Shown here in pieces: positions 15,695 to 45,557 of a stretch of DNA of 64,000 nucleotides (within the stretch, counting starts at the first letter, position 1; every line of letters begins with the position of its first letter). A program made the translations under genes and the position numbers. A model generated the notes under the pieces. It was not told the DNA's origin and searched no databases. It saw nothing but the letters and a program-made list of their open reading frames with translations. The DNA comes from a virus (lineage: Duplodnaviria > Caudoviricetes). Location of the stretch: positions 1-64,000 of IMG/VR virus record IMGVR_UViG_3300028534_000023; one strand, written 5' to 3'.

Positions 15695-15925
15695 GTGTTC
15701 TCCTTTGTATTTATATGTACTGTTGTTTGATACTTATCTTATTGCAATAATATATTTAATCTGTTTTTAGAATTTTATCAGCTTTTATTGTACTTTTTAT
15801 TTAATTAATTGCACTTTTTATATAAATCTAATTTACAATGTATTTTATTCAGATAGTGATTTTTATAATAAATTTGAATACAAATTTTAATCTTTTTGTA
15901 AAATACGTTTTAGATCGATATACAT
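15695..15925 (-). pseudogene. Possible decayed ORF with nine in-frame TAA
   Basis: 77 codons from ATG 15925, no TAG/TGA, in frame with the nuclease ATG; weak SD, very AT-rich. Confidence 0.3.
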
Positions 15926-15958
15926 TTGTACCACACACTGCTAACACTGTAGTTAAAT

Positions 15959-16321
15959 TTATCTAAGTAAGTTAAATTTCTGTGAATTTAGAATATCACA
16001 TATTTTTTCTGCGTCTTCCTTTGTTTTAAAGTATACTTTTGTTGGAGAGCAGTATCTATAAGCATTGCTATTGTCTAAACACCAATAATCGTGATCTAAA
16101 TTTTTGATTATAGAAAAATTTGTCGCTCCATGAGAATATCTAAATTCATAGCCCCTACTGTTTGGACATTCTGCATCTCTAATAGCTAACAATCGAAGAA
16201 ACATTTTTATTTGCTTTATTGCTTTTTTTGTTGTCTCTATATCATTTCTAAAAATACCATCTTCTGTAAATATGTCAGATGAGATTAAAAATTTGTTTTC
16301 TTGTAGTTTTATTTGTTTCAT
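15959..16321 (-). CDS. Hypothetical phage protein
   Basis: 120-aa ORF with SD; C-terminal VYFKTKEDAEK motif common in phage accessory proteins. Confidence 0.75.
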   Translation of the reverse strand: MKQIKLQENKFLISSDIFTEDGIFRNDIETTKKAIKQIKMFLRLLAIRDAECPNSRGYEFRYSHGATNFSIIKNLDHDYWCLDNSNAYRYCSPTKVYFKTKEDAEKICDILNSQKFNLLR

Positions 16322-16450
16322 ACTTTGTTCCTAAAATAAGTTTTCACTATTATATGAAGCTGCTAGTGTTTATAAAAAGTTCTAACACCCAATAACTAAA
16401 TCTTTATTTTTATCATACTTTAAATCATCTTTCTAACCGTCTTATCATTA

Positions 16451-16582
16451 TTAATTCTCCTCTTTTTCACCATCTATAGTATTTTTCAACTCCTCTATCT
16501 CATCATTTGTTAGCATGGCTGCTCTACGCATGATAGTATCAATAGCTTCTACTGCAGAATACTTATCATATCTATTAATCAT
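16451..16582 (-). CDS. Small hypothetical protein (43 aa)
   Basis: SD GGAG; MINRYDKYSAVEAIDTIMRRAAMLTNDEIEELKNTIDGEKEEN. Confidence 0.55.
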   Translation of the reverse strand: MINRYDKYSAVEAIDTIMRRAAMLTNDEIEELKNTIDGEKEEN

Positions 16583-16615
16583 AATCACTCCTCCAAATCT
16601 TCTATTTATACGATA

Positions 16616-16909
16616 TTATGTTAATTTCTTTTCTTTTAAAAACTCATCCGTTTTTTCCATATTATACTTATCACTATATGGATCACACTCTTCATAAAGA
16701 GCCAACTTACAACATATTTTCACAATATCTTTATACCCCTCCTCATTTGCTATAGTTGCTATTTTTAACAATTTACTATGTAAGATAATCAAAGGCTGTT
16801 TCATCGCCCACATATTTTCATTATTATGCAAAATTTCTTCAAATAGAGACTTTACGTTTATTTTCCATTCTGCTTTTTTAAATTCACTGCTCATACTGTA
16901 ATTCTCCAT
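16616..16909 (-). CDS. Hypothetical protein (start possibly ATG ~16893)
   Basis: ORF track; GGAG precedes MSSEFKK. Confidence 0.7.
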   Translation of the reverse strand: MENYSMSSEFKKAEWKINVKSLFEEILHNNENMWAMKQPLIILHSKLLKIATIANEEGYKDIVKICCKLALYEECDPYSDKYNMEKTDEFLKEKKLT

Positions 16910-17102
16910 ATTTTACACTTACTAATACTCTTGTAAACCAGTGACTAAACATATCTAGTTTGTGTTTATCCATCTTGTATTCGTTGTTTTCTTTTCTCAC
17001 AGTTTCATATTCAAGATAAAACCCCTCACCAACTTATACTTTGTCACCTACATAAATAGGAACTCCTTTGCAATCAAAATATTGTGTAAATTCTATATCC
17101 AT
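16884..17102 (-). pseudogene. YopX-like ORF with one in-frame TAA
   Basis: SD AGGA; MDIEFTQYFDCKGVPIYVGDKV*VGEGFYLEYE...YEQ*; TAA at 17034-17036. Confidence 0.7.
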
Positions 17103-17112
17103 GTGTTATTTC

Positions 17113-17265
17113 CTATAAATTTATGTTGTCGTCAACACGTGTTTGAGTACTACTATTTTATAAAGTAATTTATTTCTTATATAGCGAGTAAACTATAATT
17201 TAATTATGTGGTTTATTTACTTCATAATCTGTTTTTAAAGTTGTGTTATAGTATATTTTAATCAT
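17113..17265 (-). pseudogene. 50-codon ORF with three in-frame TAA
   Basis: ATG overlaps the upstream stop; MIKIYYNTTLKTDYEVNKPHN*IIVYSLYKK*ITL*NSSTQTRVDDNINL; TAG overlaps the next SD. Confidence 0.55.
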
Positions 17266-17500
17266 TTAAGTTATTCTTTAAGCACCTGTATAGGTCGTAT
17301 GGTATGCCTAACACTTGTTCAATTGTTCGACGCTTATGATGTACAAGGTATCGTAAGATTGTAAATTCTCTCACTTCTTTACCTTGTTGTATATACCCAC
17401 CGTATTTTTTACCATCTATTTCTACTGCGTACGTAAATACGGGTAGTTCCTGTGCGAATTTAGGTAATGTTTTTATAAAAGTGTGTTTGATTTTTATCAT
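17258..17500 (-). CDS. Hypothetical protein
   Basis: 80-aa ORF with SD AGGA. Confidence 0.7.
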   Translation of the reverse strand: MIKIKHTFIKTLPKFAQELPVFTYAVEIDGKKYGGYIQQGKEVREFTILRYLVHHKRRTIEQVLGIPYDLYRCLKNNLND

Positions 17501-17520
17501 CAGTTATCCTATAATATGGT

Positions 17521-18015
17521 ATGAATTTATTAAATCAGATGGCTCAGTCTTATGAAGGAGCTGAAGAAAGATCGGTATATATTATGAAAGTTAAATTTCG
17601 TAAAGGTAAAAGTTATAAAGTACTATACAAAATAGGAATAGCTAAAGATGCTCCAAAAAGAGCTAGTCAAATATTATTGAGCTTTTTTCAAAAAAGAAGA
17701 TATTTTCCAGAACTTCAAATATTAAGATTTAGAAAAATAGCTAACTATTTTGAAATTGAGACTAAACTACATCAGATATACGCTGAGTATAGATACGATT
17801 TTAAAAAATTGCAGTTCGATGGTTCGAATGAGTTCTTTGACGTAAATGAAAACAAACTGCTAGAACTGTATGATGAAATTATACCTACTAAGAAAAATAA
17901 AATGTATGTAGCTAAGTTACCAGAATGGGCTTATTTAGACGAAGAGAAAGAGCAAATAAGTAACGAAGCAATACAAGAAGACTCAGATGGGTACGTTATT
18001 AACATGCATAATTAA
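17521..18015 (+). CDS. T5orf172/MUG113 (GIY-YIG-like) domain protein
   Basis: YKIGIAKDAPKR...IETKLH...FDGSNEFF; TATAAT at 17510-17515. Confidence 0.85.
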   Translation: MNLLNQMAQSYEGAEERSVYIMKVKFRKGKSYKVLYKIGIAKDAPKRASQILLSFFQKRRYFPELQILRFRKIANYFEIETKLHQIYAEYRYDFKKLQFDGSNEFFDVNENKLLELYDEIIPTKKNKMYVAKLPEWAYLDEEKEQISNEAIQEDSDGYVINMHN

Positions 18016-18030
18016 AATACTTTGTGTTTT

Positions 18031-18843
18031 TTAAAATGTAAATCCTAAAACTTCGATATCTTTTCTAAAATCTTCTATCAATTTTGGTAATCTTGCTTTT
18101 AAAAGCTCTTCGTTTTGTAATTGTTTAAGTGTAGCATCTTCCCATACTGCAGACTTTCTAGCTGCAGTTAAGTTCGGTTCAATTGCTTCACACCATTTAA
18201 TAGGAATTTTTATAAATTCGTATTCATATGTTCTTAGCGCTTCTAAAAATTCTTCTGCTTCTCTTAAACTATTAAACGGTGCTTTATACCATTTACTACT
18301 TTCGTTATCTTTTATAAACCCTGTTAATGAATATCTATCTGAATAAGTACAATTATTATTTCCATCGTATTTTATTGGTTTCGCTTCTATGTTATAAAAA
18401 TCACCCACACTGTTAAGATATTTCCAAAACCCTTTAGCCTGTTCTTTAAATGTAAATGGTGCTTTTTTAAATTTTAGTCTTGTGTCCCATTTTACAGCTT
18501 CTCCTATCTCTTTGCCTTGATGTGTTCTGTCTCTTGAATGGTAAAGTGTATTTGCTATATAGTGCATAGGTCCATCACTATTCATAAAATGCCATTTAAT
18601 AAGATGCTTAAATTCAGGATAGTATTTAACTATTTCTTCGTGGATACATCCACAAGTTAAAAGATGTTTGTCTGCTCTTGATGTTGGGTGTTCATAAAGA
18701 CTCCCTGTTATTGTAAATGTATTATGCCCATTCCTGCAGTTATCATCATATCTTATTTCAACCTCTATTCTCCCTCTTGCACCATCTACCATAACTTGCT
18801 TTGAAAACACTTTTTTTTGATCTCGTGTTAAAATTGATTTCAT
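18031..18843 (-). CDS. Conserved hypothetical phage protein
   Basis: IRYDDNCRNGHNTFTITG...CGCIHEEI...LIKWH...GPMHYIAN; SD AAGGAG. Confidence 0.8.
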   Translation of the reverse strand: MKSILTRDQKKVFSKQVMVDGARGRIEVEIRYDDNCRNGHNTFTITGSLYEHPTSRADKHLLTCGCIHEEIVKYYPEFKHLIKWHFMNSDGPMHYIANTLYHSRDRTHQGKEIGEAVKWDTRLKFKKAPFTFKEQAKGFWKYLNSVGDFYNIEAKPIKYDGNNNCTYSDRYSLTGFIKDNESSKWYKAPFNSLREAEEFLEALRTYEYEFIKIPIKWCEAIEPNLTAARKSAVWEDATLKQLQNEELLKARLPKLIEDFRKDIEVLGFTF

Positions 18844-18933
18844 ATTTAACTCCTTTTATTTTAGTTTTTTGTTTATCTGTAACCTATCTAGTATACCTAA
18901 GTTAAAATTTATGCAGTTACTGTGCAGTATATG

Positions 18934-19431
18934 CTATTCTAGTATACAACCTTCTATATGTTGATAACGGACTTTACGGTAGATTTCAATTCTAGTGTCT
19001 TTGTCCGAAAGTTGTTCTCTGGTGTGAGTGAGTTGTATTATTGAATGAATAGTATGGAATATAGATATATCTTGAGATTCTTTATACAACATAATGTTTA
19101 TTTTAGGTTCATAAAATATATTATTGATTTCATATATATCGATACACTTATGTCCACACGCTGAACCTCTGTAGCTTTTTTTGTTTGTACATGTATTTTT
19201 AAGATAGGTATTGTTAGCTTTAAGAAATTCGCGTAATTGTTTAGTGTCATTTATAATTATATCGTAGTCTGATTTGTCAGAATCTACTGTCAGTTAGTAT
19301 TCCACCGAAGTCATTTATGAGTACATTTCTAAGTAATTTCATACAATATCATAAATGTTTGTACATATGAGTATATGATTCATTATAGTTCTATATTTTG
19401 TCGTTTTCTGTAGAATGTTTGATCTAAACAT
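18934..19431 (-). pseudogene. 165-codon frame with in-frame TGA, TAA, TAA
   Basis: ATG overlaps the GIY-YIG stop, SD AAGGA; stops at 19339-41, 19315-17, 19294-96, then 119 open codons. Confidence 0.55.
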
Positions 19432-19972
19432 ATTGTTGTATTCCTTTTAGTATATTATCAATAAAGTATTTACCTGCTATGTTTTTGTTTATGTAGGTTG
19501 GTTTAGTCAAGGCATCTGTTTTGTGTAGGTAATTCTCTTCTAAATATGTCAGAGAAATAAGATTGTGTGCTACAGATAAGATTCGTTTAGATATTATTGT
19601 ATATCCAGCCAAATCTTTACTAGACCCTGTATATGACCTCCAATTAGATTCTGTGTATGTTACGTCGAACGGAGTACGCTCTGCTTTTATACCTTGCTTG
19701 CGTGCTAAGGCTTTGTCTTTTTTAGAGACTGCTATTTTACCATCTATTGTTATTACGTTTTTGTATATACGTTCTGAATTAGGACGAAGTTCTCCTGATT
19801 TAAGAGCAGGGAGAGTTTTCTTTGAGTATAGTCGTTTTTTACCTATATATAAGTATGTTTTGTTATTTTTAGTTGCCGTAATCTCGTACACAAAACCGTA
19901 TGGATTGGCTATGCCGGATTGTTGTTTTATATCGTCTATCGATGTAACTGGTTTGTGTAATGTCCAATACAT
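19424..19972 (-). CDS. GIY-YIG family nuclease
   Basis: YGFVYEIT...YIGKK...ESNWRSYTGSS...LTYLEE...YINKNI. Confidence 0.85.
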   Translation of the reverse strand: MYWTLHKPVTSIDDIKQQSGIANPYGFVYEITATKNNKTYLYIGKKRLYSKKTLPALKSGELRPNSERIYKNVITIDGKIAVSKKDKALARKQGIKAERTPFDVTYTESNWRSYTGSSKDLAGYTIISKRILSVAHNLISLTYLEENYLHKTDALTKPTYINKNIAGKYFIDNILKGIQQYV

Positions 19973-20054
19973 TTTTATACATCCTTTTTAAAAGTAAATA
20001 TATATATATTTAACAGTTAATTAGCTTATATTTTTATTTTATATTGTATCTAAA

Positions 20055-20525
20055 TTATCTATCAGGTAATCCTTCACTTATTAACATTAGCGTATAAAAT
20101 TTTTCGTGTAGAGGTATGTTGAATTTTTGTGATATAAATTTCATAGTACTAAGTAATTCTCGTATTTGTCGTTTATATGAACGTTTTCTAGCTCTTTTAT
20201 GAATATTTATTAAATGTTTTACGTTATGTAAATATTCGTCTAAGACTTTTTCTGCAATAAATGGATGTATATATTTAGCATATAATATAGTACCATCATA
20301 CGTATCTTTTAATATTTTAAGTTGTCTGTTTGTAGTTACACTTAAACAGTTATGTGACGTAATTGCTAAAAAGTCGTTGTATAGCACTGCTACTAAAGTA
20401 TTATACGAATACAGTACGTTGCCTTCAAAGTGTAATCTATTATTTGCTGTAGTACCTTCTGTATATTTATGTGACAAATAAGCTGACAACAGTCCACGAT
20501 AATCGTATGATGACCTGTATTGCAT
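20055..20525 (-). CDS. Hypothetical phage protein
   Basis: 156-aa ORF, SD AAGGA. Confidence 0.75.
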   Translation of the reverse strand: MQYRSSYDYRGLLSAYLSHKYTEGTTANNRLHFEGNVLYSYNTLVAVLYNDFLAITSHNCLSVTTNRQLKILKDTYDGTILYAKYIHPFIAEKVLDEYLHNVKHLINIHKRARKRSYKRQIRELLSTMKFISQKFNIPLHEKFYTLMLISEGLPDR

Positions 20526-20607
20526 AGTTTATCCTTAGTTTATTTTGTAAAAGTTGTTTTATATTTGATTATTTGAATACATTTGTTTTCAACTGACTTT
20601 TAAGTTG

Positions 20608-20889
20608 TTAATCTACTTTTTTCATACTCTCTATGTCAAAAATATTATACACTTTTGTATCACCGAATACGTTGCTTTTATATCTAAAATCAAATATACC
20701 GTGATTCTCTATAGCTATTCTAAACTCGTTATCTAATAACGGTTCTAACTCTTTTTCTATATAACTTAACAAATAATTGTGACTGGTAGCTCCGTCTTCA
20801 CACAAGCTATTCGTATCAGGCACTGTGTTATAGCAATGTAACAATGCTTCTATCAGTAAATCGTTATCTTTATAAGTTAGAGTTTTCAT
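20608..20889 (-). CDS. Hypothetical protein
   Basis: 93-aa ORF abutting the thyX stop. Confidence 0.7.
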   Translation of the reverse strand: MKTLTYKDNDLLIEALLHCYNTVPDTNSLCEDGATSHNYLLSYIEKELEPLLDNEFRIAIENHGIFDFRYKSNVFGDTKVYNIFDIESMKKVD

Positions 20890-21747
20890 TCAGCTGTCCT
20901 TGATTATTAGGTTTAAATATTTTTGTGGAGTTGCATTTTTAATTTGTTTAGCAGTTTCTCTCATTAGGAAGTAAGCAGCTCCAGAATCTCTTAAAGTTAA
21001 AAAATTTTTAAGCGATCGTAAGTTAATTGTAACTACTGCATCCACTTTCCAGTTATCTGTGACGATATGTTTGGCTGCATCTCCAACATTACGCTTTTGC
21101 TTAGATACTTCTAATGCTTTGAATATATTTTCTGGAGTTGATTGTTCTAGTGCACCATTGGTTCTCATATCTTTGGATGTGAATGTGTTTAGGAACTCTT
21201 CACGTCCTAGTAAATTATACTGATGCATTAATTTATGATAGATCATAGAATGTTCTATTCCATTATACTCGCCAGCAGTGACTAAGTAATCAATGTTTTT
21301 ATCAAGGAATATAGAAAATTCTTCTACATTTGAGCAAGCTTCCCTACTAGGAAGATGTGCTATGAATGCATTTATAATGCCTCCCATTGTGTATCTAGTT
21401 GACTGTACTGATGGTGATACCATCCTATGACGAGCCAGCTCTTGTAGTACACCTCTACTCATACCTCTTATATTGTACTGCAATACGGCATGTTCTAATA
21501 TCGAGTAGTGAAAATAAGTCCAAGATAAATCATCAAGTAGGTTTGAATGTTCTATATCGTTAACTTCTAAAATATCGTCGTTAGACAGCTCAGGTTCGAT
21601 GTTTAATCTACGTATGGCTTTGTTCTCACTATTATCGAACGAGTTATAACACGTTCTTGCTCCGAACTCTGCTACGCCTAGCCCTGTTTCATTCAATAAG
21701 TATACTTGTGGTAAAGTATATTCAATACCTGCTACAATTGTTGTCAT
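20890..21747 (-). CDS. thyX: Flavin-dependent thymidylate synthase
   Basis: HYSILEH, SRGVLQELARHRMVSPSVQSTRY (RHRX7S), TINLRSLKNFLTLR. Confidence 0.96.
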   Translation of the reverse strand: MTTIVAGIEYTLPQVYLLNETGLGVAEFGARTCYNSFDNSENKAIRRLNIEPELSNDDILEVNDIEHSNLLDDLSWTYFHYSILEHAVLQYNIRGMSRGVLQELARHRMVSPSVQSTRYTMGGIINAFIAHLPSREACSNVEEFSIFLDKNIDYLVTAGEYNGIEHSMIYHKLMHQYNLLGREEFLNTFTSKDMRTNGALEQSTPENIFKALEVSKQKRNVGDAAKHIVTDNWKVDAVVTINLRSLKNFLTLRDSGAAYFLMRETAKQIKNATPQKYLNLIIKDS

Positions 21748-21786
21748 TACTGTTCCTTGTATATAAATATATTTAGTTTACTGTAG

Positions 21787-22383
21787 TTATTGATGTTCTT
21801 TTGAATAGTGTAATACTAAGTCACATGTTTTTCTAACTTTTTCTACATTTTCAAACGATTGTATTTTACTCATTGCAGTATCTGCGTAATATTTTAATAG
21901 AGTATTATTTGTGTGTTGCTGCAAATCAAAAATACACCTACATGCTATATTTATATGACAATCTTCAAAATTGTTATATTTGTTACGTACATGAATTTTT
22001 GGCACATTAACAAAATTTAGTTCTCTATTACCATATTCAACAATAAAATCAAAAAATATGTCATAGTTTATTAATATTTGTTCGTCGCATTTGTTAAATA
22101 TATCTTCTATTAAAGGTATAGATTTTTCTTCTATATTCAAAAATATTGTATTTCTAAATATATAAAGTAAATCTACTTTTCTTTCTGTACTTATCAAAGA
22201 ATTATCTACTTTCATGTAGTACGTATGTAATGCTTTTATATTATTATACAGACTCGTATGTTTTTTGATTACTAAACTGTCTAGTGCGTCTATAGCATTA
22301 TATAACATACTTTTTAACTCGTTTATAGTTACTGACGGTTTATTAGCAAGTTTTATAAAATTGATAAGTTGATCGTCTTTCAT
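21787..22383 (-). CDS. Hypothetical protein
   Basis: 198-aa ORF, SD AAGGA. Confidence 0.75.
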   Translation of the reverse strand: MKDDQLINFIKLANKPSVTINELKSMLYNAIDALDSLVIKKHTSLYNNIKALHTYYMKVDNSLISTERKVDLLYIFRNTIFLNIEEKSIPLIEDIFNKCDEQILINYDIFFDFIVEYGNRELNFVNVPKIHVRNKYNNFEDCHINIACRCIFDLQQHTNNTLLKYYADTAMSKIQSFENVEKVRKTCDLVLHYSKEHQ

Positions 22384-22508
22384 GTAAATCCTTTGTAGAC
22401 ATTGTTAATTTTTCTAATTTGTTTGTATGTACTTTTGGTAGTTATTTTAAATATCAGTATTATAGTTTATACACCCCATGCTCGATAAAACAGTTATCTT
22501 ATTGCCAT
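22380..22508 (-). pseudogene. 42-codon ORF with two in-frame TAA, overlapping both neighbours
   Basis: TAATG overlap at start, ATGA overlap at end; MAIR*LFYRAWGV*TIILIFKITTKSTYKQIRKINNVYKGFT. Confidence 0.65.
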
Positions 22509-23200
22509 TACTTAGTTCTTATTTTAGTTTTTAAATTTTTTAAAGCTTGTTGTGTATATTCTATTTCTTGCGTATGGTCAATCGTACTTTTATCTATATT
22601 TAACATATTTTGCAAAATATCTATTATAGTATTGTTTTTATTTGCTTTGATATGTATTTTCAGTTTTTCTAAGTACAACCATTTGTTATAATTAGCTGTA
22701 CTGCTTCGACGTGTAGCGTTTTTAGTTTTAAACATATCTGTATCTAAAACAGGTGTTCTAGGTATGTTTATTAAAAATGTCTCATAGTCTATGTTTAATG
22801 TTTTGTCTTTTACTGTTAAGCATAGTATTTTTAAATCTTTAGCAAAGCAGTAACTATCTCTATATACATTTTTTTGTATTGTTAGTGGATAATACTCAAA
22901 AAGTACTTTAAGTTTTTCATAAGAAATATTATAGTTATCTATATTTGTGAAAAATAAGTTTGAAATATATTCTACAGTATTTTCTACTCGTCTTGGCAAT
23001 GCTGCTTTTGATTTACTTGTAAATAGTTTGTATGCTTTTGTCAATACTATAAATCTGAAATATATATCATCGAAATCGCTGTTACGAGAATTTTTATATT
23101 TAAGTAATTCTACATTTGTGTCTATGACTTCTTTTAAATACTTTATAGTAGATTTCTCACTTAGTGAGTCTTTTGTAATTATAAATGTTAATTCATTCAT
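22508..23200 (-). CDS. Hypothetical protein
   Basis: 230-aa ORF. Confidence 0.75.
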   Translation of the reverse strand: MNELTFIITKDSLSEKSTIKYLKEVIDTNVELLKYKNSRNSDFDDIYFRFIVLTKAYKLFTSKSKAALPRRVENTVEYISNLFFTNIDNYNISYEKLKVLFEYYPLTIQKNVYRDSYCFAKDLKILCLTVKDKTLNIDYETFLINIPRTPVLDTDMFKTKNATRRSSTANYNKWLYLEKLKIHIKANKNNTIIDILQNMLNIDKSTIDHTQEIEYTQQALKNLKTKIRTK

Positions 23201-23267
23201 TTTATACCACCCTGTTCTATATATATAGTGTTTGTACTATTATAATTAAGTACGTGATTCATATGTT

Positions 23268-24668: not shown

Positions 24669-24678
24669 AACATTTCCT

Positions 24679-25845: not shown

Positions 25846-25857
25846 TTTTATTCCTTT

Positions 25858-26070
25858 CTATGCATAAATATCTAATATAACTCTTTTTAATCTTTTTTGT
25901 TTCAACATCTCAATAACTGTTTTTAGCCCATCTGCTTGTTTTTTACAGATTTTTAACTCTCTTTCTGCTTTCTGCATCCTCTGTATAACTTTTTGAAGTT
26001 GTAGAGCACTTACTGTCACTTCGTATTCTTCTTTGTAGAGTCCAGTTAATATGTCTTGCGCAGTAATCAT
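25858..26070 (-). CDS. Hypothetical coiled-coil protein
   Basis: 70-aa ORF with SD. Confidence 0.65.
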   Translation of the reverse strand: MITAQDILTGLYKEEYEVTVSALQLQKVIQRMQKAERELKICKKQADGLKTVIEMLKQKRLKRVILDIYA

Positions 26071-26864: not shown

Positions 26865-26879
26865 ATACGTATCCTTTGT

Positions 26880-35898: not shown

Positions 35899-35907
35899 CT
35901 TGCAATA

Positions 35908-35916
35908 TGCTATAAT
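35908..35916 (+). promoter_or_regulatory. Extended -10 promoter TGCTATAAT
   Basis: Consensus match, intergenic. Confidence 0.75.
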
Positions 35917-35947
35917 ACTAAATCTAATATTATAGGTGTAAATAAGT

Positions 35948-36577: not shown

Positions 36578-39500
36578 TGGGAAGAAGTTCTACATTCTGC
36601 AATTCGTCTACTATCCCTATATCTCAGTTTATAGGAAGCAAGTACGACGATGTAAAAGAAGTTGCAGACAAGCTCGACATGCTAACAGAAATAGCAAATA
36701 TTGATTATAATGCTTTATTAAGTGCTTTAGAAGAAGCTCAAGATTTTACAGGTATAGTTGTAGTTCCTACTACTACAGAATCTAGGTGGGATGCAGAAAC
36801 AAAAACACTGTATGTAAAAACAGTTGAAGGTATACAAGGCGAGAAAGGTATACAAGGAGAGAGAGGAGAGAAAGGAGAAAGAGGAGAACGTGGGTTACAA
36901 GGATTACAAGGATTAAAGGGCGACACTGGTGACAAGGGTGATAAAGGTGATAAAGGCGATGACGGGAAACCTGGAGTAAGTATCCATCACATAAAACCTG
37001 TAGGCACTACAGAACCTAATGGTCAGTTTACTACCCCTGGATACGTAGATACTTATAATTTATTTGCAGATGCAGATGAGACTTTGGTTCTTGGAAGTTT
37101 TTCTGTAGCAAACCCTGACCTTTCAATAGCACCTGAAGTTATGACTAAGAGTACATATGACTCTAACAGCAGTGGCGTTGTAGACAATGCAGAAAAACTT
37201 GACGGAAATACTGTAGATGATGTTATAAATGCAGTAGTAGAAAAAGTACCTACAAGCTACGCTGCATCTAACATTACGTTAGATACGTCAGAATTTGATG
37301 GAAACTTTGATAATAGCGTAACTGACGTACAGGCAGCTATAAATTATTTAGATAATCTTATAACATCTGGTGGTAACGTGACTATAGAATCTGGTGATAC
37401 TCCTCCAGTAACTGCTGAAGATGCTACGTTGTGGCTAAACACTAAAAACAATAGTGTGTATATTTACGTCAACGGTGTATGGGTAAATGCTACAACTAGT
37501 TTATCAGTAACTACAATATCTACTGTACTGTCAGTTATATTAGACACTGCTCCTTTTTCTGCAACTTCTACCACACATGTAGACACTGTAAAAGTATGTG
37601 TAGTAAGAAATGAGAACTTGTTTACAGATATTACGTTAAATGGAAACGTACTTACCTTCAACAAAGCTACTGAATATACAAACATGATTAAAAAAATAGT
37701 ACCGTGTTATAGAAGTTCTGTATTACTGACTAATGATGGTACAATCATGGAAGCAGGGTATGATGTCTCTTCGAATGTGTTTGTACCTGTAAATGTAAAT
37801 GGCTTCGTGCGTGATATTTTCTATGGACATGAGGCTGTATGGTTATTGATGTACGACGGAAGTGTAATGTACAAAGGACTGAACACATCGTACACTGCAG
37901 GTCTTGGACATTCATCAGAAGTTGCTTCTTTTACAAAAGTTCCTTATATAGAAAACATTAAAAAAATAGCTAGTACTAGAGATTTTTCTGTAGCACTCAC
38001 TGAAAGTGGTAACGTATTTGTTGTAGGAGATGCTGAAAAAAACAGTACGTACCTTCTTAATGGAGATAGTTCTATTACAAGTAGATTTACATATGTAGAC
38101 AATTTAGGACATACAGTCATTGATATAGCTGTATCTAGTATGTCTACGTTTATTTTAACATCTAGTAATGAAGTATACGGGATAGGTCTTGCTTACGGTC
38201 TTTACGAAAATCTTACCGACGCGTACAATCTAGGGTTAGTAAATAACATGGCAGTGTCTAACAAACTTGTAAAAGCTGTAGGAATACCTAACGGAGACAT
38301 AGTAAGCATACATGGTCCATCATATGTAGGCTCTGTAAGTATAGCGTGCATTGACAGCAGTAATATTATATACGGTAATAAAGAAGACAGCTCGTATAAC
38401 GAGCTAGGTGGACTAAAAGATACAAGCACGCATGGATTTTCTAACTTGCATATAACAGGCACTGACATAGTTATAGGGTACTATTGTTCGTTTTATATAG
38501 ATTTAGATGGTATTGTATGGGCTAGTGGTCTGGATTATGGAGGTCAGTTAGGTACTTCTGGTAGTGTTACTGAATATACAAATACTGGTATAAGTAATGT
38601 TTCTTATATCTCAAGTATTCAGTACAACTCGTTTATGGTATTAAATACCGATACCTTTTTATGTGTAGGAGACAACTCATCAGGCGAACTCGGTATAGCA
38701 AGTGATGACTCATCTACAAATGAATGGTCTCAGTATTCTGTAGATATTGCTAACTCGTCAGGGTATATAGCATGCACTGACGTTATTAAAGTAGATATGG
38801 GTGTAGACTTTGAAGTATCTACAGTATCTGGTGACACTGCAGGTATAGATGAAGTGCGTATATTAGGATACGTAGTTACAGATGACAATATACATACTGT
38901 AGATACTACAGACTACTTAAAAATTGACGGTAGTAGAAATCTTGACAGTAGCTATACTCCAGTAGACGATTATTCAGTTGCTACAAAACTGTACGTAGAT
39001 TCTATTAGCAAAGTAATAGAAGTGTCAAATGTAACTGATTTAGACTCTATTGATGGCAATATTGTACACTCTGTATGTGTAACATCTTCAACATTAGGTG
39101 GCATATACGTATATGATCCATACTATACTGGAACAGCTTATAGTTATAATGGGTGGGTACGGCAAAGTAACTCTGGAAACAAACCTGCAGTAGACGTTTA
39201 TGTTGATACAACAAATTTTGGAGGAGAAGTTTTAAGTAGTGAAGATACAAATCTACAACTAGCGTTAAACACGCTAGACAAACTTGTAAACACTGGAGGG
39301 TCGGTAGAAGTAGTAAAACAAGATTACCCACCAGCGTCGTTAAAAGAAGGTAGTATATGGTATGATACTAAAAATAACATGATATTTTTCAGTATAAATG
39401 GTTCTTGGGTAAATGCTAGCAAGACAGTAAAAGTACCTTTTTATAACAATATTCTAACTACTATATTAGAAAACAGTACTGAATATCCTTTGAGTATCAA

Positions 39501-40950
39501 AAGTGACACTGCTGTTGGAGCTGTCAGATTACTTGTAAGACGTACAGAAGATAAGTTTACAGATATAACCATAAATGGCAGTTTGGTAGAGTTTAAAACG
39601 TCTGAGCAGGATATTCCAAGCATAGTAAATATAGCATCAGGCAATAAAGAAACTGTTATATTACTAAATGACGGAACTGTGTTTACGTCTGGAGATTTTT
39701 CAGACAGTGCAGTATTCGTTCAAGATACTACCGTTACTGACTTTATAACTGATTTGTTTGACGGTGTAAGAGGTGTATGGATAAAGAAAGTAGATGGAAC
39801 TGTTTTATATAGAGGTGCAAATTATAATTTTACTGCAGGGCTTGGTCATAGAAGCACTGTTTATCAGTGGACAGAAATACCGTACTTGAAAAACGTAAAA
39901 AAGATAGTAAGTACTACAAACTTCTCTGTAGCATTAACTGATTTAGGGTTTGTACACACTGTAGGATATGTAGTATCTGCAGACAGCTATCTACCTAACG
40001 GTACTACTGCGACAACAGATAAATTTACTTTAGTTGACGGCATAGATAACGTAATAGATATAGCAGTATCTTCTACTTCAACATTCATGCTAAAAGCAGA
40101 CGGAAGTGTGTACGGCGTAGGTAAGGCTTATGGTTTGTTTGAATCTATATCAGATGCACATCAAAGTGGTTTAGTTAACGATTATTCAGCTGTGCTAAAA
40201 CCTACTAAAGCTGTAGGACTTCCTAACGACATAGTTAAGATATTCGGAGGTTCAAGTTCTTCAGAATCAATAGTATGTGTTTCAGCTGACGGAAGTATGT
40301 ACTGTAACTATGAGAATACTACGTATAACGATATAGGTGGTTTGAAAGATTTATCTACTGATGCTTTTACTTACTTAGGTATTAAAGGAAAATATTTTAC
40401 TACTGGGTATCACTGTTCGTTCTACATAGACGTTGACGGCAACTCGTTTGCAAGTGGTTATAACTACGGAAATCAATTAGGGCTTTCATCTAGTGTAGAC
40501 TCGTATACTGAAATAGATGTACCTACAGGTGTATCTAAAATAGTTACAGCCTATAATCAATCATTGTGTATAACAGATACAGATATTATAGGAGTAGGCG
40601 AAAATAGTGTAGGTGAGTTAGGTGTTGATGATACAACTGATAAAGATACATGGGCAACTGCTACCATAAGTATAGACTCTAACTTTAACGGATTTAGGGC
40701 TTTATCAGAATATATTCCGTTAAACAACATTACTGACATATTTATAGATGTGATAGGTAGTAATAGTATTGATAGTATATACGTGTCTTTGTATAACATT
40801 ACAGAAGAATATGTTTTTATGGAAGATACTACTTCGTACCTATACTCTAACGGCTCTGTTCTTCTTGACGAGGATTATACACCGTTTACTGAAAGAAGTA
40901 TAGCAACTAAAAAATACGCAGATGATTTAGTATCTGTTGTAGAGTGGTAA
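36577..40950 (+). CDS. Tail fibre / appendage with a collagen-like segment and two RCC1-like modules
   Basis: (GXY)16; duplicated AGLGH...KKI.ST..FSVALT..G modules; ATK.Y.D motifs. Confidence 0.85.
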   Translation: MGRSSTFCNSSTIPISQFIGSKYDDVKEVADKLDMLTEIANIDYNALLSALEEAQDFTGIVVVPTTTESRWDAETKTLYVKTVEGIQGEKGIQGERGEKGERGERGLQGLQGLKGDTGDKGDKGDKGDDGKPGVSIHHIKPVGTTEPNGQFTTPGYVDTYNLFADADETLVLGSFSVANPDLSIAPEVMTKSTYDSNSSGVVDNAEKLDGNTVDDVINAVVEKVPTSYAASNITLDTSEFDGNFDNSVTDVQAAINYLDNLITSGGNVTIESGDTPPVTAEDATLWLNTKNNSVYIYVNGVWVNATTSLSVTTISTVLSVILDTAPFSATSTTHVDTVKVCVVRNENLFTDITLNGNVLTFNKATEYTNMIKKIVPCYRSSVLLTNDGTIMEAGYDVSSNVFVPVNVNGFVRDIFYGHEAVWLLMYDGSVMYKGLNTSYTAGLGHSSEVASFTKVPYIENIKKIASTRDFSVALTESGNVFVVGDAEKNSTYLLNGDSSITSRFTYVDNLGHTVIDIAVSSMSTFILTSSNEVYGIGLAYGLYENLTDAYNLGLVNNMAVSNKLVKAVGIPNGDIVSIHGPSYVGSVSIACIDSSNIIYGNKEDSSYNELGGLKDTSTHGFSNLHITGTDIVIGYYCSFYIDLDGIVWASGLDYGGQLGTSGSVTEYTNTGISNVSYISSIQYNSFMVLNTDTFLCVGDNSSGELGIASDDSSTNEWSQYSVDIANSSGYIACTDVIKVDMGVDFEVSTVSGDTAGIDEVRILGYVVTDDNIHTVDTTDYLKIDGSRNLDSSYTPVDDYSVATKLYVDSISKVIEVSNVTDLDSIDGNIVHSVCVTSSTLGGIYVYDPYYTGTAYSYNGWVRQSNSGNKPAVDVYVDTTNFGGEVLSSEDTNLQLALNTLDKLVNTGGSVEVVKQDYPPASLKEGSIWYDTKNNMIFFSINGSWVNASKTVKVPFYNNILTTILENSTEYPLSIKSDTAVGAVRLLVRRTEDKFTDITINGSLVEFKTSEQDIPSIVNIASGNKETVILLNDGTVFTSGDFSDSAVFVQDTTVTDFITDLFDGVRGVWIKKVDGTVLYRGANYNFTAGLGHRSTVYQWTEIPYLKNVKKIVSTTNFSVALTDLGFVHTVGYVVSADSYLPNGTTATTDKFTLVDGIDNVIDIAVSSTSTFMLKADGSVYGVGKAYGLFESISDAHQSGLVNDYSAVLKPTKAVGLPNDIVKIFGGSSSSESIVCVSADGSMYCNYENTTYNDIGGLKDLSTDAFTYLGIKGKYFTTGYHCSFYIDVDGNSFASGYNYGNQLGLSSSVDSYTEIDVPTGVSKIVTAYNQSLCITDTDIIGVGENSVGELGVDDTTDKDTWATATISIDSNFNGFRALSEYIPLNNITDIFIDVIGSNSIDSIYVSLYNITEEYVFMEDTTSYLYSNGSVLLDEDYTPFTERSIATKKYADDLVSVVEW
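36829..36975 (+). repeat. Collagen-like GXY repeat (16 triplets)
   Basis: GIQGEKGIQGERGEKGERGERGLQGLQGLKGDTGDKGDKGDKGDDGKPG. Confidence 0.95.
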
Positions 40951-40974
40951 TTAACACTATATTGGAGAATATAA

Positions 40975-43900
40975 ATGAGTATTATTAGAAAACAAGACAC
41001 TGACGGAGAAAAAACAAGTAATTTAGGTGTAGGCGAGTTTGGGTTTGATGCAAACACGGACAGTTACGATAAAAATAGAGTATATATAGGTACGTTAGAG
41101 GCTAATGATGTAAAGCTAGCTACTTTATCTGACGCTATTGCACATAACCGTGACAGTATAAACAATACTATTGCTTATGGTATGGTAGCTGCAGAAAAAT
41201 CGAAAAACAACTACTTTATAGATGTAAACGATGGAGGTATCTGTACAGTCGACCCTGCATCGAGTAAGTTTTTTGAACTCGACAGCAATGGAAATATGTT
41301 AGGAGAGTGCATACATATACTCGGCACTGATGGTGACGAACTCAATACATTTTCATGTGAATCTGGTTTAGGTGTAATAACATTAAGAAATACAGAAGTT
41401 GATGATACATCAGTGTACGGTTTAAAACTTAACAGTGTTTCCAACGTAGGAGTTGTGTCAAACATTAACGATAATTATCCAACAGAATGTACTAGACAAG
41501 GTGATATGTTAATTATAGATGATGTAGATGTAGAGTTATCTCCAGACCCCGATTTTGACAATGGGATATATACTTGGAGCACATCTACTCCAGTTACATC
41601 TGTCAATTACGACAGTGATAACAAAATGCTTGTCGTACGTTCTGATGGAGAAGATAGTACGTATTTCCCTGCTATAGCAGTACTACAGTCACTTTCAGGT
41701 GACATGCCAGGTAAGTACGAAATAACTGTATCATACAATAGTGGAGACGCTGGTGGTATAAAAATATATTGTGGAGATAGCGATGTTATCGTAGATACTG
41801 ACAACGACAACGAAGAGGCTACTGTAACAAAGGTAGTAAGTTCTGCTTCTGTATACCTAGAATTTAAAACAGTAGGTAATACTGACAAGTATGCAGAAAT
41901 ATCATACATGTCTATAAAACGCGTAGAACCTTTATTCTTGATACGTAACACATCAGACACATCTTCTAGTATTTTATCAAATTACTCTCCTGACACTTTA
42001 AACTACAGTCCTAAAATATTCACAGAAACAAAGAATGCAGTTAGAGAAGATTTTGTATTTTTAGAAATTTTTGAAGAGGATGTAATCGACAAAGATTTTG
42101 TACACGTGTTTGGGAACGTTTCTTTTGAAGGTAGTTATTGTGGTAGTTTTCCAACTCTTGAAACACCTACATTCGATGGCTATGATACATACTCGTTGCC
42201 TAGTGTTAATGCTGACACCAATGTAATAGGAAAAGGCGTACGTTGGAGTTCTATCAGTGATGACGATAGATTACGAATTGTGTCAGACAAAAGAAATAAC
42301 ATTACAATTTCAGATAACGGTAGATACATACAAACTAAATTTAGGCTTCGTACTGTATCAGGTAACGGAAGTTCATGGAGTAACGTAGAGTATAGCACTG
42401 GTACGAACCTGTCTTACAACTATGCGTATGGGTATAACGGACGTATAATGTCTCAAGGCTCTAAAACTACACCGTACTATGAAGCAGATCTGTACGGTGT
42501 CGATACCGGTAGTTATAGTATACATTCAAGTAATAGTAAATTGTTAGGGTCTTTTTCTCCTAAATACGGTACTGAAATAGATACAGTAGCTGTTCCTATA
42601 GCTCTAGTTCAACGCAGAAATATAGGTGTGTATCATGTAAAATACAATCCACATGGCACTGCAAAGTATTGCTACATAAATGATGATGGTACATTTTCAA
42701 TGATAGAATGGTATGAACTAGGCTCAAACTCGTATCCTGAAAACTCGTTGAACAATATAAGTAAATCTGCTATGTTTAGCCCTGACCATATTTCTTGTAT
42801 AAATGACGATGGGTCTGTAATAGGAAATCTAAATAGTAATGACAGTAGTTTAACAAGAACTGGTAGTGTTAAATCTACAGTGTGTGGAAGACCTGACGGT
42901 ATGTTTTACGACGGTGTGTATGATTGTGATATTACAGACCTAAGAAAGTATGCTACAGATATAGACTTTGAACGTGTAATGGATGATTATCATACAAAGG
43001 TAAGAAATGGCAGTGTAAGAGGTAAAGAAAAAGCAATAGTAGTAAACGACTATACAAGTATAGATTCTATAAATGAACGATATACAGATGCTTATGGAAG
43101 ACTAAACACTGGTACGTACACTGAAAGTGATTATACGTACAATAATTACGGAACTGCGTGTAGTATTTTAGGCGATCCTAGAAAACTTTCAGACAGAGTA
43201 TCTATAGTTACAGTATCTGGCGATGGTCTATCATATGATGTATTTAAAGGCATGTATATCAAAGCTGATGAAGAATACTATAGAAGTTTGTCAGACAGAG
43301 GATTAATAACAGTTGACCCTGACACAGAAGATTACACAGATATAACTAACTGGATTTCTTTAGGCTCTGATGGTACTATTGGGTCTATGCCTATAAACCT
43401 TTCTAATGGTACTGAGTGTATGTATGACTTTATACTTGATGATGTAAATAAATCATATAACGGGTTTTCTACCAAAGTATCTGGACATGCTTCTTATAGA
43501 GGGTATTTTAAAGTATGTAAAAAAATATACAATAACATAACTGCATACTATCAAGTAGTATACGAAGTTTTAGCCATACTCCCTGACGGAGAAGTACGAA
43601 AACTGACATTTGATGCAAATTACGGCAATGCTATTACAGGTGACTACGACATTTACTGGACCAGAAATTATGATAACAGCATATCATTCGGAATAAGTGG
43701 TGTAGACGAAAAAGATTGGGATCTTATAAAAATACTGGTATTTTATAAGACTAAAGTATCTACAGCTATACCTACAAAAAATTCTAAAGTTATATCATAC
43801 AGCAATATTGCGATGACAGAATGTTCATCGTTTAAAGATTCTTTCCCAAGAAATAATATAGTATACCCTCTATTAGGCAAGGTAAATACCTCAACTATAA

Positions 43901-44253
43901 ACGGAAATTATGGAATAGCTTTGTATAATCTAGGTTTTGATGCCAATAGAATTATTGACCCTACATACGGAATACCTTTTACAAATACGTTTTTTTCTTA
44001 CATGGTAAATTTCAATCTTCTTGAAAATGCTTCTAGCCCTACTTTGAAATACATACACTATCTATCTGAAAATAACGGCGTGCTACAACTTGTTTTATTG
44101 TTCAAAGAACTTGCTTTTACTAACGGTAGTTGGGGAGAGGATGTTCTAATACCTGTTACTGATTATGTGGATTTAATAGCAGATACTAATGGTACTTATG
44201 TGATGTTTGGTCAAAAATCTATAGAACTTCCATACTATTTTAAAGGAGATTAA
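40975..44253 (+). CDS. Second large tail / receptor-binding protein
   Basis: 1092 aa, beta-rich; PIALVQRRNIGVYH..YNPHG and GRPDGMFYD motifs recalled from phage tail proteins. Confidence 0.7.
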   Translation: MSIIRKQDTDGEKTSNLGVGEFGFDANTDSYDKNRVYIGTLEANDVKLATLSDAIAHNRDSINNTIAYGMVAAEKSKNNYFIDVNDGGICTVDPASSKFFELDSNGNMLGECIHILGTDGDELNTFSCESGLGVITLRNTEVDDTSVYGLKLNSVSNVGVVSNINDNYPTECTRQGDMLIIDDVDVELSPDPDFDNGIYTWSTSTPVTSVNYDSDNKMLVVRSDGEDSTYFPAIAVLQSLSGDMPGKYEITVSYNSGDAGGIKIYCGDSDVIVDTDNDNEEATVTKVVSSASVYLEFKTVGNTDKYAEISYMSIKRVEPLFLIRNTSDTSSSILSNYSPDTLNYSPKIFTETKNAVREDFVFLEIFEEDVIDKDFVHVFGNVSFEGSYCGSFPTLETPTFDGYDTYSLPSVNADTNVIGKGVRWSSISDDDRLRIVSDKRNNITISDNGRYIQTKFRLRTVSGNGSSWSNVEYSTGTNLSYNYAYGYNGRIMSQGSKTTPYYEADLYGVDTGSYSIHSSNSKLLGSFSPKYGTEIDTVAVPIALVQRRNIGVYHVKYNPHGTAKYCYINDDGTFSMIEWYELGSNSYPENSLNNISKSAMFSPDHISCINDDGSVIGNLNSNDSSLTRTGSVKSTVCGRPDGMFYDGVYDCDITDLRKYATDIDFERVMDDYHTKVRNGSVRGKEKAIVVNDYTSIDSINERYTDAYGRLNTGTYTESDYTYNNYGTACSILGDPRKLSDRVSIVTVSGDGLSYDVFKGMYIKADEEYYRSLSDRGLITVDPDTEDYTDITNWISLGSDGTIGSMPINLSNGTECMYDFILDDVNKSYNGFSTKVSGHASYRGYFKVCKKIYNNITAYYQVVYEVLAILPDGEVRKLTFDANYGNAITGDYDIYWTRNYDNSISFGISGVDEKDWDLIKILVFYKTKVSTAIPTKNSKVISYSNIAMTECSSFKDSFPRNNIVYPLLGKVNTSTINGNYGIALYNLGFDANRIIDPTYGIPFTNTFFSYMVNFNLLENASSPTLKYIHYLSENNGVLQLVLLFKELAFTNGSWGEDVLIPVTDYVDLIADTNGTYVMFGQKSIELPYYFKGD

Positions 44254-44254
44254 A

Positions 44255-45202
44255 TTGAACAAGTATGAACATTTGCGAGATATGGCGTATGAAACTTTAG
44301 TAAATATGCCAACAACAAAAAACTTTTCTGCTACACTGCATGTGTCTGTAGATTACATAAAAAACAAACTTATTGCAAAAAATGTACGCTCTTTATCTAC
44401 TTTTTACGACGTAAACTATTCAGTAGATCAAGTTACAGATATAAAAGATAGAACAGGGGCTACAATATTTACAACAACTACTAAATTACCTTGTATAGAA
44501 TACTCTGTAAATTCCGAAGGCAGCAAAGTGTATGATAAGTATTCGTTTACTATTGATGGTACAGAGTATGTATGTGATAGTCATTCAAATAAATTAGATG
44601 ACACTGTTATGGATTTAATAAACACTGATAGAGTTGTTGTACGCATGTCCAAAAATAGTTTTATAACAGAGAAGATAAGTTCAGTACGTGTAAATTACGT
44701 AGATTTTGCTGATGATACTCTTATAGATGTGTTACTTAATACAGTAATACCAGCAATGGCTGATGAAAGTACTGACAAAGCATTAGCATACATAGCCAGC
44801 AAGCCTAAGGTATCAGAGCAGCAAAGGTATAGATATACAGTAAAAGCCAAAATAGCAGAAAAAGCAATATCAGGAGATAAGCAGTGTTATTCTATGTTAG
44901 ACCTAGAAGCCAAAATAAAAGAAATAGATACAGATGTGTATATAAACGACATAATCAAAATGTCGTCAATATGGAGTACTACTGCAGATGAGTTGGTAGT
45001 AAAAATAGAAGCAGTGCGTACAGCAGTGTGTGAACTTTTAAAGTACGATAGCGCAAAATCGCAAGATGCAGCATATGTTACAAACGTAGGTAAACGTGTG
45101 CATAAAGCAATAAATATAATATCTTTGGGATCGAATTTAACAGCATACTCGTCTGTTGACAGTATACTTAAATTGTTCGATAACGACTATAACATACAAT
45201 AA
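44255..45202 (+). CDS. Tail-associated protein (possible fibre chaperone), TTG start
   Basis: SD AAGGAG; follows the tail gene. Confidence 0.65.
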   Translation: MNKYEHLRDMAYETLVNMPTTKNFSATLHVSVDYIKNKLIAKNVRSLSTFYDVNYSVDQVTDIKDRTGATIFTTTTKLPCIEYSVNSEGSKVYDKYSFTIDGTEYVCDSHSNKLDDTVMDLINTDRVVVRMSKNSFITEKISSVRVNYVDFADDTLIDVLLNTVIPAMADESTDKALAYIASKPKVSEQQRYRYTVKAKIAEKAISGDKQCYSMLDLEAKIKEIDTDVYINDIIKMSSIWSTTADELVVKIEAVRTAVCELLKYDSAKSQDAAYVTNVGKRVHKAINIISLGSNLTAYSSVDSILKLFDNDYNIQ

Positions 45203-45218
45203 TAGAGGAATTTAGCGT

Positions 45219-45557
45219 ATGAGCAGTAAGAAATTTTCAGACCTCAGTTTAGAATAAAGAAACAACATATGTAACGGATGTGGTGGAAAAGGGTCAATTA
45301 TAAATGTGCCAGATTTCTTGTTCAAAGTAAGTTGCGATCATCACGATTATTTGTACTACGTAGGTGGTACTTAAAAAGATAGAGCAGTGGCAGATAAAAA
45401 GTTTTTAAGATACATGCTTGAAGACGCTAGTAGTAGTATATGCACTATAGATGTAATATATTATAAAATTTGGGAGTATTCTTACTATTATGCAGTTAGG
45501 TTGTTTGGTAAAAAGTATTTTAACTATAAACAATTTACATTAAGTACTGTATTATGA
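45219..45557 (+). pseudogene. PLA2-like/DUF1353-like gene with two in-frame TAA
   Basis: SD GAGGA; ICNGCGGKG...SCDHHDYLYYVGGT*KDRAVADKKF...YYAVRLFGKKYF; TAA at 45255-57 and 45372-74. Confidence 0.85.

Follow-up and report, generated by a model that had tools for sequence, protein, structure and literature searches.

The six reading frames punctuated by in-frame TAA codons in this phage genome very probably represent three AT-rich spacers, one frameshifted pseudogene, and two accessory genes recently inactivated by nonsense mutations. The best explanation is recent, strain-specific pseudogenization through G:C>T:A transversions, recoding of the stop codon being disfavored, and the events are ordinary gene decay. 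All six frames, described as cryptic genes in the initial annotation, were recovered in the window (the 64,000-nucleotide stretch that was analyzed), five on the minus strand (15695-15925, 16884-17102, 17113-17265, 18934-19431, and 22380-22508; regions 1 to 5) and one on the plus strand (45219-45557; region 6). The tally of in-frame stops was also reproduced (9 + 1 + 3 + 2 + 2 + 2 = 19 TAA, 1 TGA, and 0 TAG), but its interpretation as a set of six TAA-interrupted genes was not, since 14 of the 19 TAA codons fell in regions 1, 3, and 5. Genuine in-frame TAA codons numbered three and were confined to regions 2 and 6; the other interrupting stops (n = 16) are chance or wrong-frame.

The source is an uncultured, AT-rich N4-like phage from a marine epibiont or vent setting. 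Its genome has a GC content of 30%, and the coding strand contains 42% A. Searching GenBank phages by megablast with 15000-23000 and 44500-46500 gave no near-identical match, and no terminal repeat was found between the ends of the record. The comparison with the 99% identical strain covered approximately 17 kb.

With this base composition, TAA would be by far the commonest random stop, and therefore the best frame through a spacer would often be interrupted by TAA only. More than 170 frames of at least 60 codons that were free of TAG and TGA and punctuated by TAA were present in the off-frames of the genome. Stop counts were evaluated as the probability that the best of the three frames in shuffled sequences had as few stops. 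For regions 1, 3, and 5, both stop counts and codon scores were no better than those of shuffles of their own sequence, shuffled DNA yielding equally punctuated TAA-only frames, and their proposed status as cryptic genes was discarded. Region 1 (15695-15925, minus strand), with nine TAA in 77 codons, is an A-rich intergenic spacer and not a gene; shuffles of its sequence averaged 8.3 stops per frame (P = 1.0), its codon score was unexceptional (P = 0.65), and no Pfam or PHROG match was found. Within it, TAA-A recurs in the same frame owing to a 21-nt tandem repeat (15784-15825). Contig L033, 99.84% identical, differed from the window at one position here (15876) and had no called gene. Region 5 (22380-22508, minus strand; two TAA in 42 codons) separates two genes as a 124-nt spacer; it had a shuffle P of 0.64 for stop count, a codon score of 0.08 to 0.10 (P = 0.96), no Pfam or PHROG family match, and no Shine-Dalgarno sequence. 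Look-ups of close relatives with both flanking proteins returned the identical ENA contig alone.

Region 3 (17113-17265, minus strand) forms the spacer between an 80-aa gene and region 2 and contains three TAA and a terminal TAG. Its stop count and codon score were those of shuffled sequence (P = 0.72 and P = 0.32, respectively), no Pfam or PHROG family matched, and contig L029 carried identical stops; two readings fit, a non-coding stretch or a far older remnant. The 99%-identical strain thus kept the same stops in both regions 1 and 3. Fusion of region 3 to region 2 as its N-terminal part was considered and ruled out: the two lie in different frames, and a relative with an intact region 2 has the same stops. 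Across the spacers, a promoter and terminator scan remained at background level, and no shared motif of at least 11 nt was detected. The reported preference for A after the TAA codons (A in 15, G in 2, and C in 2) was reproduced, but the bias is mostly background: A follows 53-55% of all TAA on that strand (P of 15 or more in 19, approximately 0.02), and eight of the 15 cases came from region 1, which holds the tandem repeat. Excluding this region left seven of ten (P = 0.23).

Region 2 (16884-17102, minus strand) is a real 72-codon accessory gene whose function is unassigned. It is preceded by an AGGA Shine-Dalgarno sequence, has few stops compared with its shuffles (P = 0.019), and showed a gene-like codon score (0.45-0.49). 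A word-based search for homologues gave no match; an exhaustive search of representatives returned two, P0006 (E = 1e-6) and P0007 (E = 2e-5). The gene contains one derived nonsense TAA at codon 23 (17036-17034). In L029, a 98.8% identical contig from a different run, the corresponding codon is TCA, encoding Ser, and the 72-aa gene is intact and called; Ser or Glu occupies this position in the distant homologues. Five of the six differences between the window and L029 were non-synonymous. At H17 and S23, L029 agreed with the distant homologues and the window did not, and the same was true of G45 with respect to P0006. For the 95% identical strain X3, a look-up over regions 1 to 5 with the intact 72-aa protein returned L029 alone. 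A TCA>TAA change in the lineage of the window would thus have inactivated a genuine small gene. A gene of the T5orf172/MUG113 type (GIY-YIG-like; 17521-18015, plus strand; precomputed Pfam PF10544 and PF13455) lies beside regions 2 and 3.

Region 6 (45219-45557, plus strand) is a 112-codon phospholipase A2 (PLA2)-like gene (PF09056-type, phrog_6098) located between tail and lysis-type genes. It matched phrog_6098 at 2.7e-7, and four homologues with 47-54% identity were found. Both derived nonsense codons are TAA, at 45255-45257 (codon 13) and 45372-45374 (codon 52). Contigs from runs X2 (approximately 99% identical) and X3 (approximately 95%) have G at 45255 and 45372, giving GAA at both sites, and the four homologues have E, Q, E, and a gap at the first site and E in all four at the second. 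Over 2.8 kb, the window and X2 showed approximately 26 differences, of which only those at the two stop sites were T>G. The strain comparison revealed two further changes derived in the window, A37V (45328) and A86E (45475), at positions occupied by Ala in all four and in three of the homologues, respectively. All four derived changes in this gene (E13*, A37V, E52*, and A86E) were non-synonymous, in contrast to the neighboring genes, where ten derived changes comprised five synonymous and five conservative ones. GAA>TAA mutation, occurring twice in the lineage of the window, would have inactivated this genuine small gene as well. Two nonsense codons in a single 112-codon gene without an indel are somewhat unusual.

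The window copy of region 6 scored 13.7 bits against PF09056, below the gathering cutoff of 29.4; homologue P0003 exceeded it (37.9 bits), and P0001, P0002, and P0004 scored 18.8-23.7. In the homologue alignment, S38, C39, H42, and D43 were invariant, placing a His-Asp pair in a C-x-x-H-D context, which in its PF09056 setting would be the putative catalytic dyad. Among the six regions, only region 6 resembles the prokaryotic and phage PLA2-like domain (PF09056 Phospholip_A2_3; phrog_6098), its C-x-H-H-D...Y...D-R...D..F..M core aligning with that of the family. It differs in that the window copy is interrupted twice and carries A37V and A86E, and enzymatic activity of the phage subfamily is itself putative. 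IMG/VR searches yielded one distant locus with the region 6 protein, 21 loci of at most 47% identity with the 270-aa neighbor, against which tblastn of the six frames was uninformative, and none with the 315-aa upstream gene. Scans for the exact pattern around the second TAA site, with N at the variable base, found it in no other JGI metagenome or IMG/VR record, and no RNA library was listed among the sequencing runs.

In region 4, the initial annotation had reported no frameshift over 18934-19431; that statement was overturned by homologue P0005 (59-65% identical), which produced two HSPs in tblastn, in frames -3 and -1. Residues 1-20 of P0005 match 19342-19283 and residues 22-139 match 19293-18937 in another frame, which places the TGA and two TAA originally noted in the wrong frame. 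The corrected feature (18934-19342, minus strand; start ATG at 19342-19340) is a pseudogene with a frameshift, belonging to a 154-aa protein family with unassigned function; one frame holds its N-terminal 17 codons and a different one the remainder (19293-18934), with a net length difference of -14 nt relative to the homologue near 19291-19288. For the N-terminal part, the codon score preferred the MKLLRN frame to the one originally chosen; the stretch 19343-19431, together with the three stops, belongs to a non-ancestral frame. The 99.9% identical contig L031 has the same lesion and no gene called there. Region 4 is an older pseudogene, and the initial annotation had followed an incorrect frame on the upstream side of the shift. 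Directly upstream lies a SegE-type GIY-YIG homing-endonuclease gene (19424-19972, minus strand; precomputed Pfam PF19835 in the identical ENA contig).

Intact orthologues and a derived lesion were thus found for region 6 (X2, X3, and the four homologues), region 2 (L029), and region 4 (P0005). Regions 2 and 6 also bear the signs of relaxed selection, although the numbers are small, and have probably drifted under it since their inactivation. Direct observation covers the six frames, the frameshift in region 4, the derived stops, the non-synonymous excess, and the sense codons that close relatives and distant homologues carry at the stop sites. The truncated products are presumably non-functional, and read-through is probably not occurring. 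Approximately 6.6% of the possible single-base changes in the two genes create a stop, TAA being the commonest outcome, and three nonsense changes among approximately 65 strain differences therefore match unselected mutation. All three are G:C>T:A transversions, as are three of the four derived changes in region 6, compared with one transversion in its flanks; this skew hints at a specific mutational process. Pseudogenization with a G-to-T flavor, one of the two readings originally offered, holds in kind for three of the six regions, with all three nonsense changes being G:C>T:A. The decay is not unusually extensive, amounting to two nonsense-hit genes and one frameshifted gene compared with the six genes and 19 TAA claimed. 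The affected genes resemble ordinary strain-specific phage pseudogenes of the nonsense and frameshift types in having intact orthologues in near-identical strains, derived stops, and a non-synonymous excess, and in being small non-core genes near mobile homing-endonuclease genes. Nothing essential sets them apart, the one oddity being that the three nonsense changes are without exception G:C>T:A transversions and that two of them hit a single gene.

It is unlikely that the nonsense alleles were themselves selected, for instance as an escape from a host defense that senses the PLA2-like or the small protein. Such adaptive loss would fit the two independent stops in one gene, the fact that both stop sites are the sole T>G differences in 2.8 kb, and the position of accessory genes beside homing endonucleases in a region of mosaic divergence; however, a single stop would be enough, any further one being expected to be neutral; a test of selection would need more than four derived changes; and no parallel loss was seen in other strains, X2 and X3 being intact. 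We consider it very unlikely that the three TAA codons arose as errors of sequencing or consensus calling in the source library, such as oxidative G>T damage, in genes that are in fact intact. All three are of the G:C>T:A type, the classic 8-oxoG artefact, and the TAA alleles occurred only in assemblies that may share a single sample. Nevertheless, damage artefacts are of low frequency and do not reach the consensus at three sites, and the IMG/VR record, an ENA MEGAHIT contig (100% identical over 7258-27500, covering the region 2 site only), and a Logan contig (0 differences over 44000-47000, covering the region 6 sites only) agree, with a word depth of approximately 22x. Further derived non-synonymous changes, transitions (A37V and H17Y) among them, are present in both genes, as expected of genes under truly relaxed selection.

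Conditional read-through or suppression of TAA as Glu, by a suppressor tRNA or leaky termination that would switch on accessory genes, is extremely improbable. Both TAA codons of the PLA2-like gene are exactly at Glu positions, and its putative catalytic CDHHD motif is retained, so that TAA as Glu fits region 6; it fails for region 2, where the near-identical strain has Ser and the distant homologues have either Ser or Glu. Across relatives of 95-99% identity, all from contigs of another study, sense codons specifying two amino acids (TCA, GAA, and GAA) occupy all three sites, contrary to the conservation of the stop among relatives expected of programmed read-through, and the TAA-bearing copies have acquired damaging substitutions at conserved positions. 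Moreover, the 16 remaining stops are chance or wrong-frame. ARAGORN detected no tRNA, either in the window or across the entire 73,640-bp record, and thus none with the UUA anticodon that had been suggested; tmRNAs and Rfam matches were likewise absent from the 73.6 kb. With a CheckV completeness of 73%, a tRNA could sit in a missing part, but other pipelines gave assemblies of 72.5-73.9 kb, and these, like the N4-like gene set, point to a nearly complete genome. The observation that core genes lack internal TAA and use it as a real stop was confirmed: the ribonucleotide reductase (RNR), primase, PolA, helicase, TerL, portal, and MCP genes are single uninterrupted ORFs, and TAA, the main terminator, ends 64 of the 107 ORFs of at least 80 aa.

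Known phage recoding affects TAG and TGA, and TAA continues to be favored as a stop (Borges et al., bioRxiv 10.1101/2021.08.26.457843). TAG is read as Gln in code 15 and TGA as Trp in code 4 in crAss-like, Lak, and other phages (bioRxiv 10.1101/2021.08.26.457843; Peters et al., PMC9523058). The present genome resembles these in its low GC content and in having some genes with in-frame stops. In recoded phages, however, the reassigned codon is TAG or TGA, is found across many genes (conserved late genes among them), is avoided at gene ends, and is conserved among relatives, often together with a suppressor tRNA, whereas here the codon is TAA, is limited to three sites in two accessory genes, serves as the main terminator, is absent at these sites in relatives, and is accompanied by no tRNA. 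None of the marks of stop recoding was present, whether in-frame stops in many genes, a depleted terminator, a suppressor tRNA in the record, or a single amino acid at sites conserved as stops in close relatives. TAA read-through, if real, would have been the first for phages; the near-identical strains rule it out here.

It appears highly improbable that the nonsense-bearing strain persists through leaky termination or suppression of TAA in its natural host (probably a low-GC vent epibiont), with low-level PLA2-like and 72-aa products, or that a lineage-specific G:C>T:A mutator drives gene loss. If true, the former would mean host-dependent conditional expression, and the latter could reflect, for example, oxidative damage or the absence of 8-oxoG repair from the host. 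With strain-specific pseudogenization as the preferred account, the results mainly counsel caution: TAA-only punctuated frames in AT-rich spacers arise by chance and are no basis for recoding claims, and assembling frames by eye can mask a frameshift. The real content is modest, namely that two accessory genes, including a PLA2-like gene beside lysis genes, were lost very recently at the strain level and that a third, adjoining a homing endonuclease, was lost earlier.

The initial annotation had described six frames as cryptic genes interrupted by TAA and had explained them by either ochre read-through or extensive pseudogenisation: regions 1 to 5 on the minus strand (15695-15925, 16884-17102, 17113-17265, 18934-19431, and 22380-22508) and region 6 on the plus strand (45219-45557). 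All six were present at these coordinates and the arithmetic was right, with 9, 1, 3, 2, 2, and 2 TAA codons in regions 1 to 6 (19 in all), one internal TGA (region 4), no TAG, and A, G, and C following TAA 15, 2, and 2 times, respectively. Only three of these TAA codons proved to be genuine in-frame interruptions.

Because the leftward coding strand contains 41.5% A and 28% T, TAA is its dominant random stop. The whole record contains more than 170 stretches (≥60 codons, with at least two open pieces of ≥25 codons) that TAA punctuates but that lack TAG and TGA; most were off-frames of, or antisense to, real genes. Shuffled DNA, the control named in the initial annotation, matched regions 1, 3, and 5: the best of three shuffled frames had as few stops as observed with a probability of 0.997, 0.72, and 0.64, respectively, while regions 2, 4, and 6 gave 0.019, 0.0002, and 0.005. 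The same split came from a log-odds score of codon usage that was trained on genes of this phage and tested against own-composition shuffles (P = 0.65, 0.32, and 0.96 for regions 1, 3, and 5); region 2 was gene-like (P = 0.011). No matches to regions 1, 3, or 5 were found in Pfam, PHROGs, or related loci. The preference for A after TAA is mostly background: A follows 53-55% of all TAA on the same strand, the probability of at least 15 of 19 was ~0.02, and omitting region 1 left 7 of 10 (P = 0.23). On the strength of the shuffles, the codon score, the absence of homologues, and this background, 14 of the 19 TAA codons lie in frames indistinguishable from non-coding spacer.

Region 1 contains a 21-nt tandem direct repeat (15784-15825; copies 86% identical), and TAA-A recurs in one frame because the unit is a multiple of three. 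The repeat is located in the spacer upstream of a PD-(D/E)XK nuclease gene, with several AT-rich inverted repeats at 15704-15965, and this spacer may be a regulatory region. The three TAA codons and the TAG of region 3 occur identically in L029, a near-identical strain's contig from another run, so these stops are not particular to the window strain.

Region 6 matched phrog_6098 (2.7e-7) and aligned collinearly, in a single frame, with four homologues (47-54% identity), one of which passed Pfam PF09056 (prokaryotic phospholipase A2, PLA2). The first TAA column held E, Q, E, and a gap (codons GAA, CAG, and GAA), and the second E in all four (GAG, GAA, and GAA). The deciding evidence came from public contigs compared over 44000-47000: run X1, possibly the source sample, was identical to the window; run X2, from a different study, showed 26 differences in 2.8 kb; and run X3 was ~95% identical in a 37.5-kb contig. 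At 45255 and 45372, where codons 13 and 52 begin, X2 and X3 each have G, so that both codons read GAA; no other T>G difference separated the window from X2 in the compared stretch. When changes were polarised with X3 as outgroup, four in region 6 fell to the window lineage (E13*, A37V, E52*, and A86E); the distant homologues have Ala at residue 37 (all four) and at residue 86 (three). The ten derived changes in neighbouring genes were five synonymous and five conservative, a contrast pointing to relaxed selection in a dead gene. Region 6 is a real gene that has recently taken two nonsense mutations. Downstream, at 45606-46400 (+), lie a 133-aa gene (N-terminal TM and coiled coil; weak holin-like PHROG matches) and a 129-aa gene (phrog_31219), in the same frame with only TAA and one codon between them. 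The three genes look like a lysis cassette, and in the homologue contigs, too, a membrane or coiled-coil protein comes after the PLA2-like gene.

An exhaustive profile search with region 2 found P0006 and P0007 (39% identity; E = 1e-6 and 2e-5), with Ser and Glu, respectively, in the TAA column. L029, 98.8% identical and indel-free over 16805-18526, has TCA (Ser) at this site, and its 72-aa gene was called intact. The window and L029 differ at six positions in region 2, five of them non-synonymous; L029, not the window, agreed with the distant homologues at H17 and S23, and with P0006 at G45. Region 2, too, is a real gene, and a single nonsense mutation has recently interrupted it. The proposed reading of TAA as Glu holds for region 6 but fails here.

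Region 4 was said to lack a frameshift, yet its sole database homologue, P0005 (154 aa), aligned in two frames by tblastn: residues 1-20 at 19342-19283 (80% identity, E = 3e-7) and residues 22-139 at 19293-18937 (65%, E = 5e-53). P0005 starts MKLLRDVLIEDFGGILTGSQLFGVATDKSDYDII; in the window, MKLLRNVLINDFGGILT, encoded from the ATG at 19342, and the sequence from VDSDKSDYDIII onward lie in different frames. From T17 to V24, six codons in P0005 correspond to 4 nt in the window, a net change of -14 nt that shifts the frame. The TGA and both TAA codons fall within the N-terminal 46 codons as originally drawn, in a frame not used by P0005, and the codon score there favoured the MKLLRN frame. Contig L031 (another run, 99.9% identical) carries the same lesion with no gene called; region 4 is an older pseudogene shared with the L031 strain. 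Its start is 81 nt downstream of the stop of a SegE-type GIY-YIG homing endonuclease gene (PF19835; 19424-19972, minus strand), directly upstream. This gene and a homing-endonuclease-type T5orf172/MUG113 gene (PF10544/PF13455; 17521-18015, plus strand), both free-standing, flank the cluster of decayed small genes.

Measured against the related strain (contigs L029, L031, and L033, and run X2), divergence was 0.16% over 5959-16604 and 1.2% over 16805-18526, with 12 differences clustered at 18169-18486 within a 270-aa gene; 18792-20971 differed by one substitution and a 2-nt indel (~0.1%; AT at 20008-20009 relative to L031, in the 82-nt spacer 19973-20054). Over 44000-46793 it was 0.9%. This mosaic suggests recombination patches. 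All three nonsense changes were G:C>T:A transversions, as was one of the two other derived changes in region 6 (C>A at 45475), making three of four in that gene. In a manual tally of the compared segments, polarised only for 44-47 kb, transversions with A/T in the window and G/C in the relative exceeded the reverse ~9 to 2, which fits the universal AT-biased mutation spectrum showing where selection is off; given a comparison of ~17 kb, a lineage-specific oxidative or mutator component may also contribute. Since ~6.6% of possible single-base changes in the region 2 and 6 genes create a stop, most often TAA, three nonsense changes among ~65 strain differences in ~17 kb are expected of unselected mutation.

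The window covers bases 1-64000 of a 73,640-bp IMG/VR virus record with ~30% GC. Its genes point leftward to ~31 kb and rightward thereafter, and it encodes RNR, primase, family-A DNA polymerase, helicase, large terminase, portal, and major head protein. This gene set and the genome size are consistent with an N4-like phage. Other pipelines produced assemblies of 72.5-73.9 kb, suggesting that the record lacks only a little of the genome. Same-frame genes of 1457 and 1092 aa (36577-44253, plus strand) are separated by TAA, seven codons, and TAA, with an ATG immediately 3' of the second TAA, and are probably separate genes. Run X1 is labelled epibiont metagenome, and X4, with a small share of words, hydrothermal vent metagenome; these labels and the 30% GC hint at a vent epibiont host.

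Ochre read-through is refuted by the close relatives, which have sense codons at all three genuine TAA sites. These codons are derived, do not occur in near-identical strains, and replace two different amino acids; the copies carrying them have taken further damaging substitutions. The core genes are uninterrupted, and among the 107 ORFs of ≥80 aa, 64 end in TAA. The suggested UUA-anticodon tRNA was not found: ARAGORN detected neither tRNAs nor a tmRNA, whether in the window or in the complete record, and Rfam gave no matches at gathering score. Known phage recoding, by comparison, reassigns TAG or TGA and keeps TAA as the preferred stop. Consensus error behind the three TAA codons is unlikely, since three assemblies agree, word depth is ~22x, and changes other than nonsense accompany them. 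Pseudogenisation was right in kind but far smaller in extent, with 14 of 19 TAA codons at chance level and region 4 frameshifted.

The best explanation has three parts: regions 2 and 6 reflect recent, ordinary pseudogenisation of dispensable accessory genes, region 4 an older frameshift, and regions 1, 3, and 5 chance frames in AT-rich spacers. The pattern first described, though correctly counted, is for the most part an artefact of base composition and of the frames chosen.
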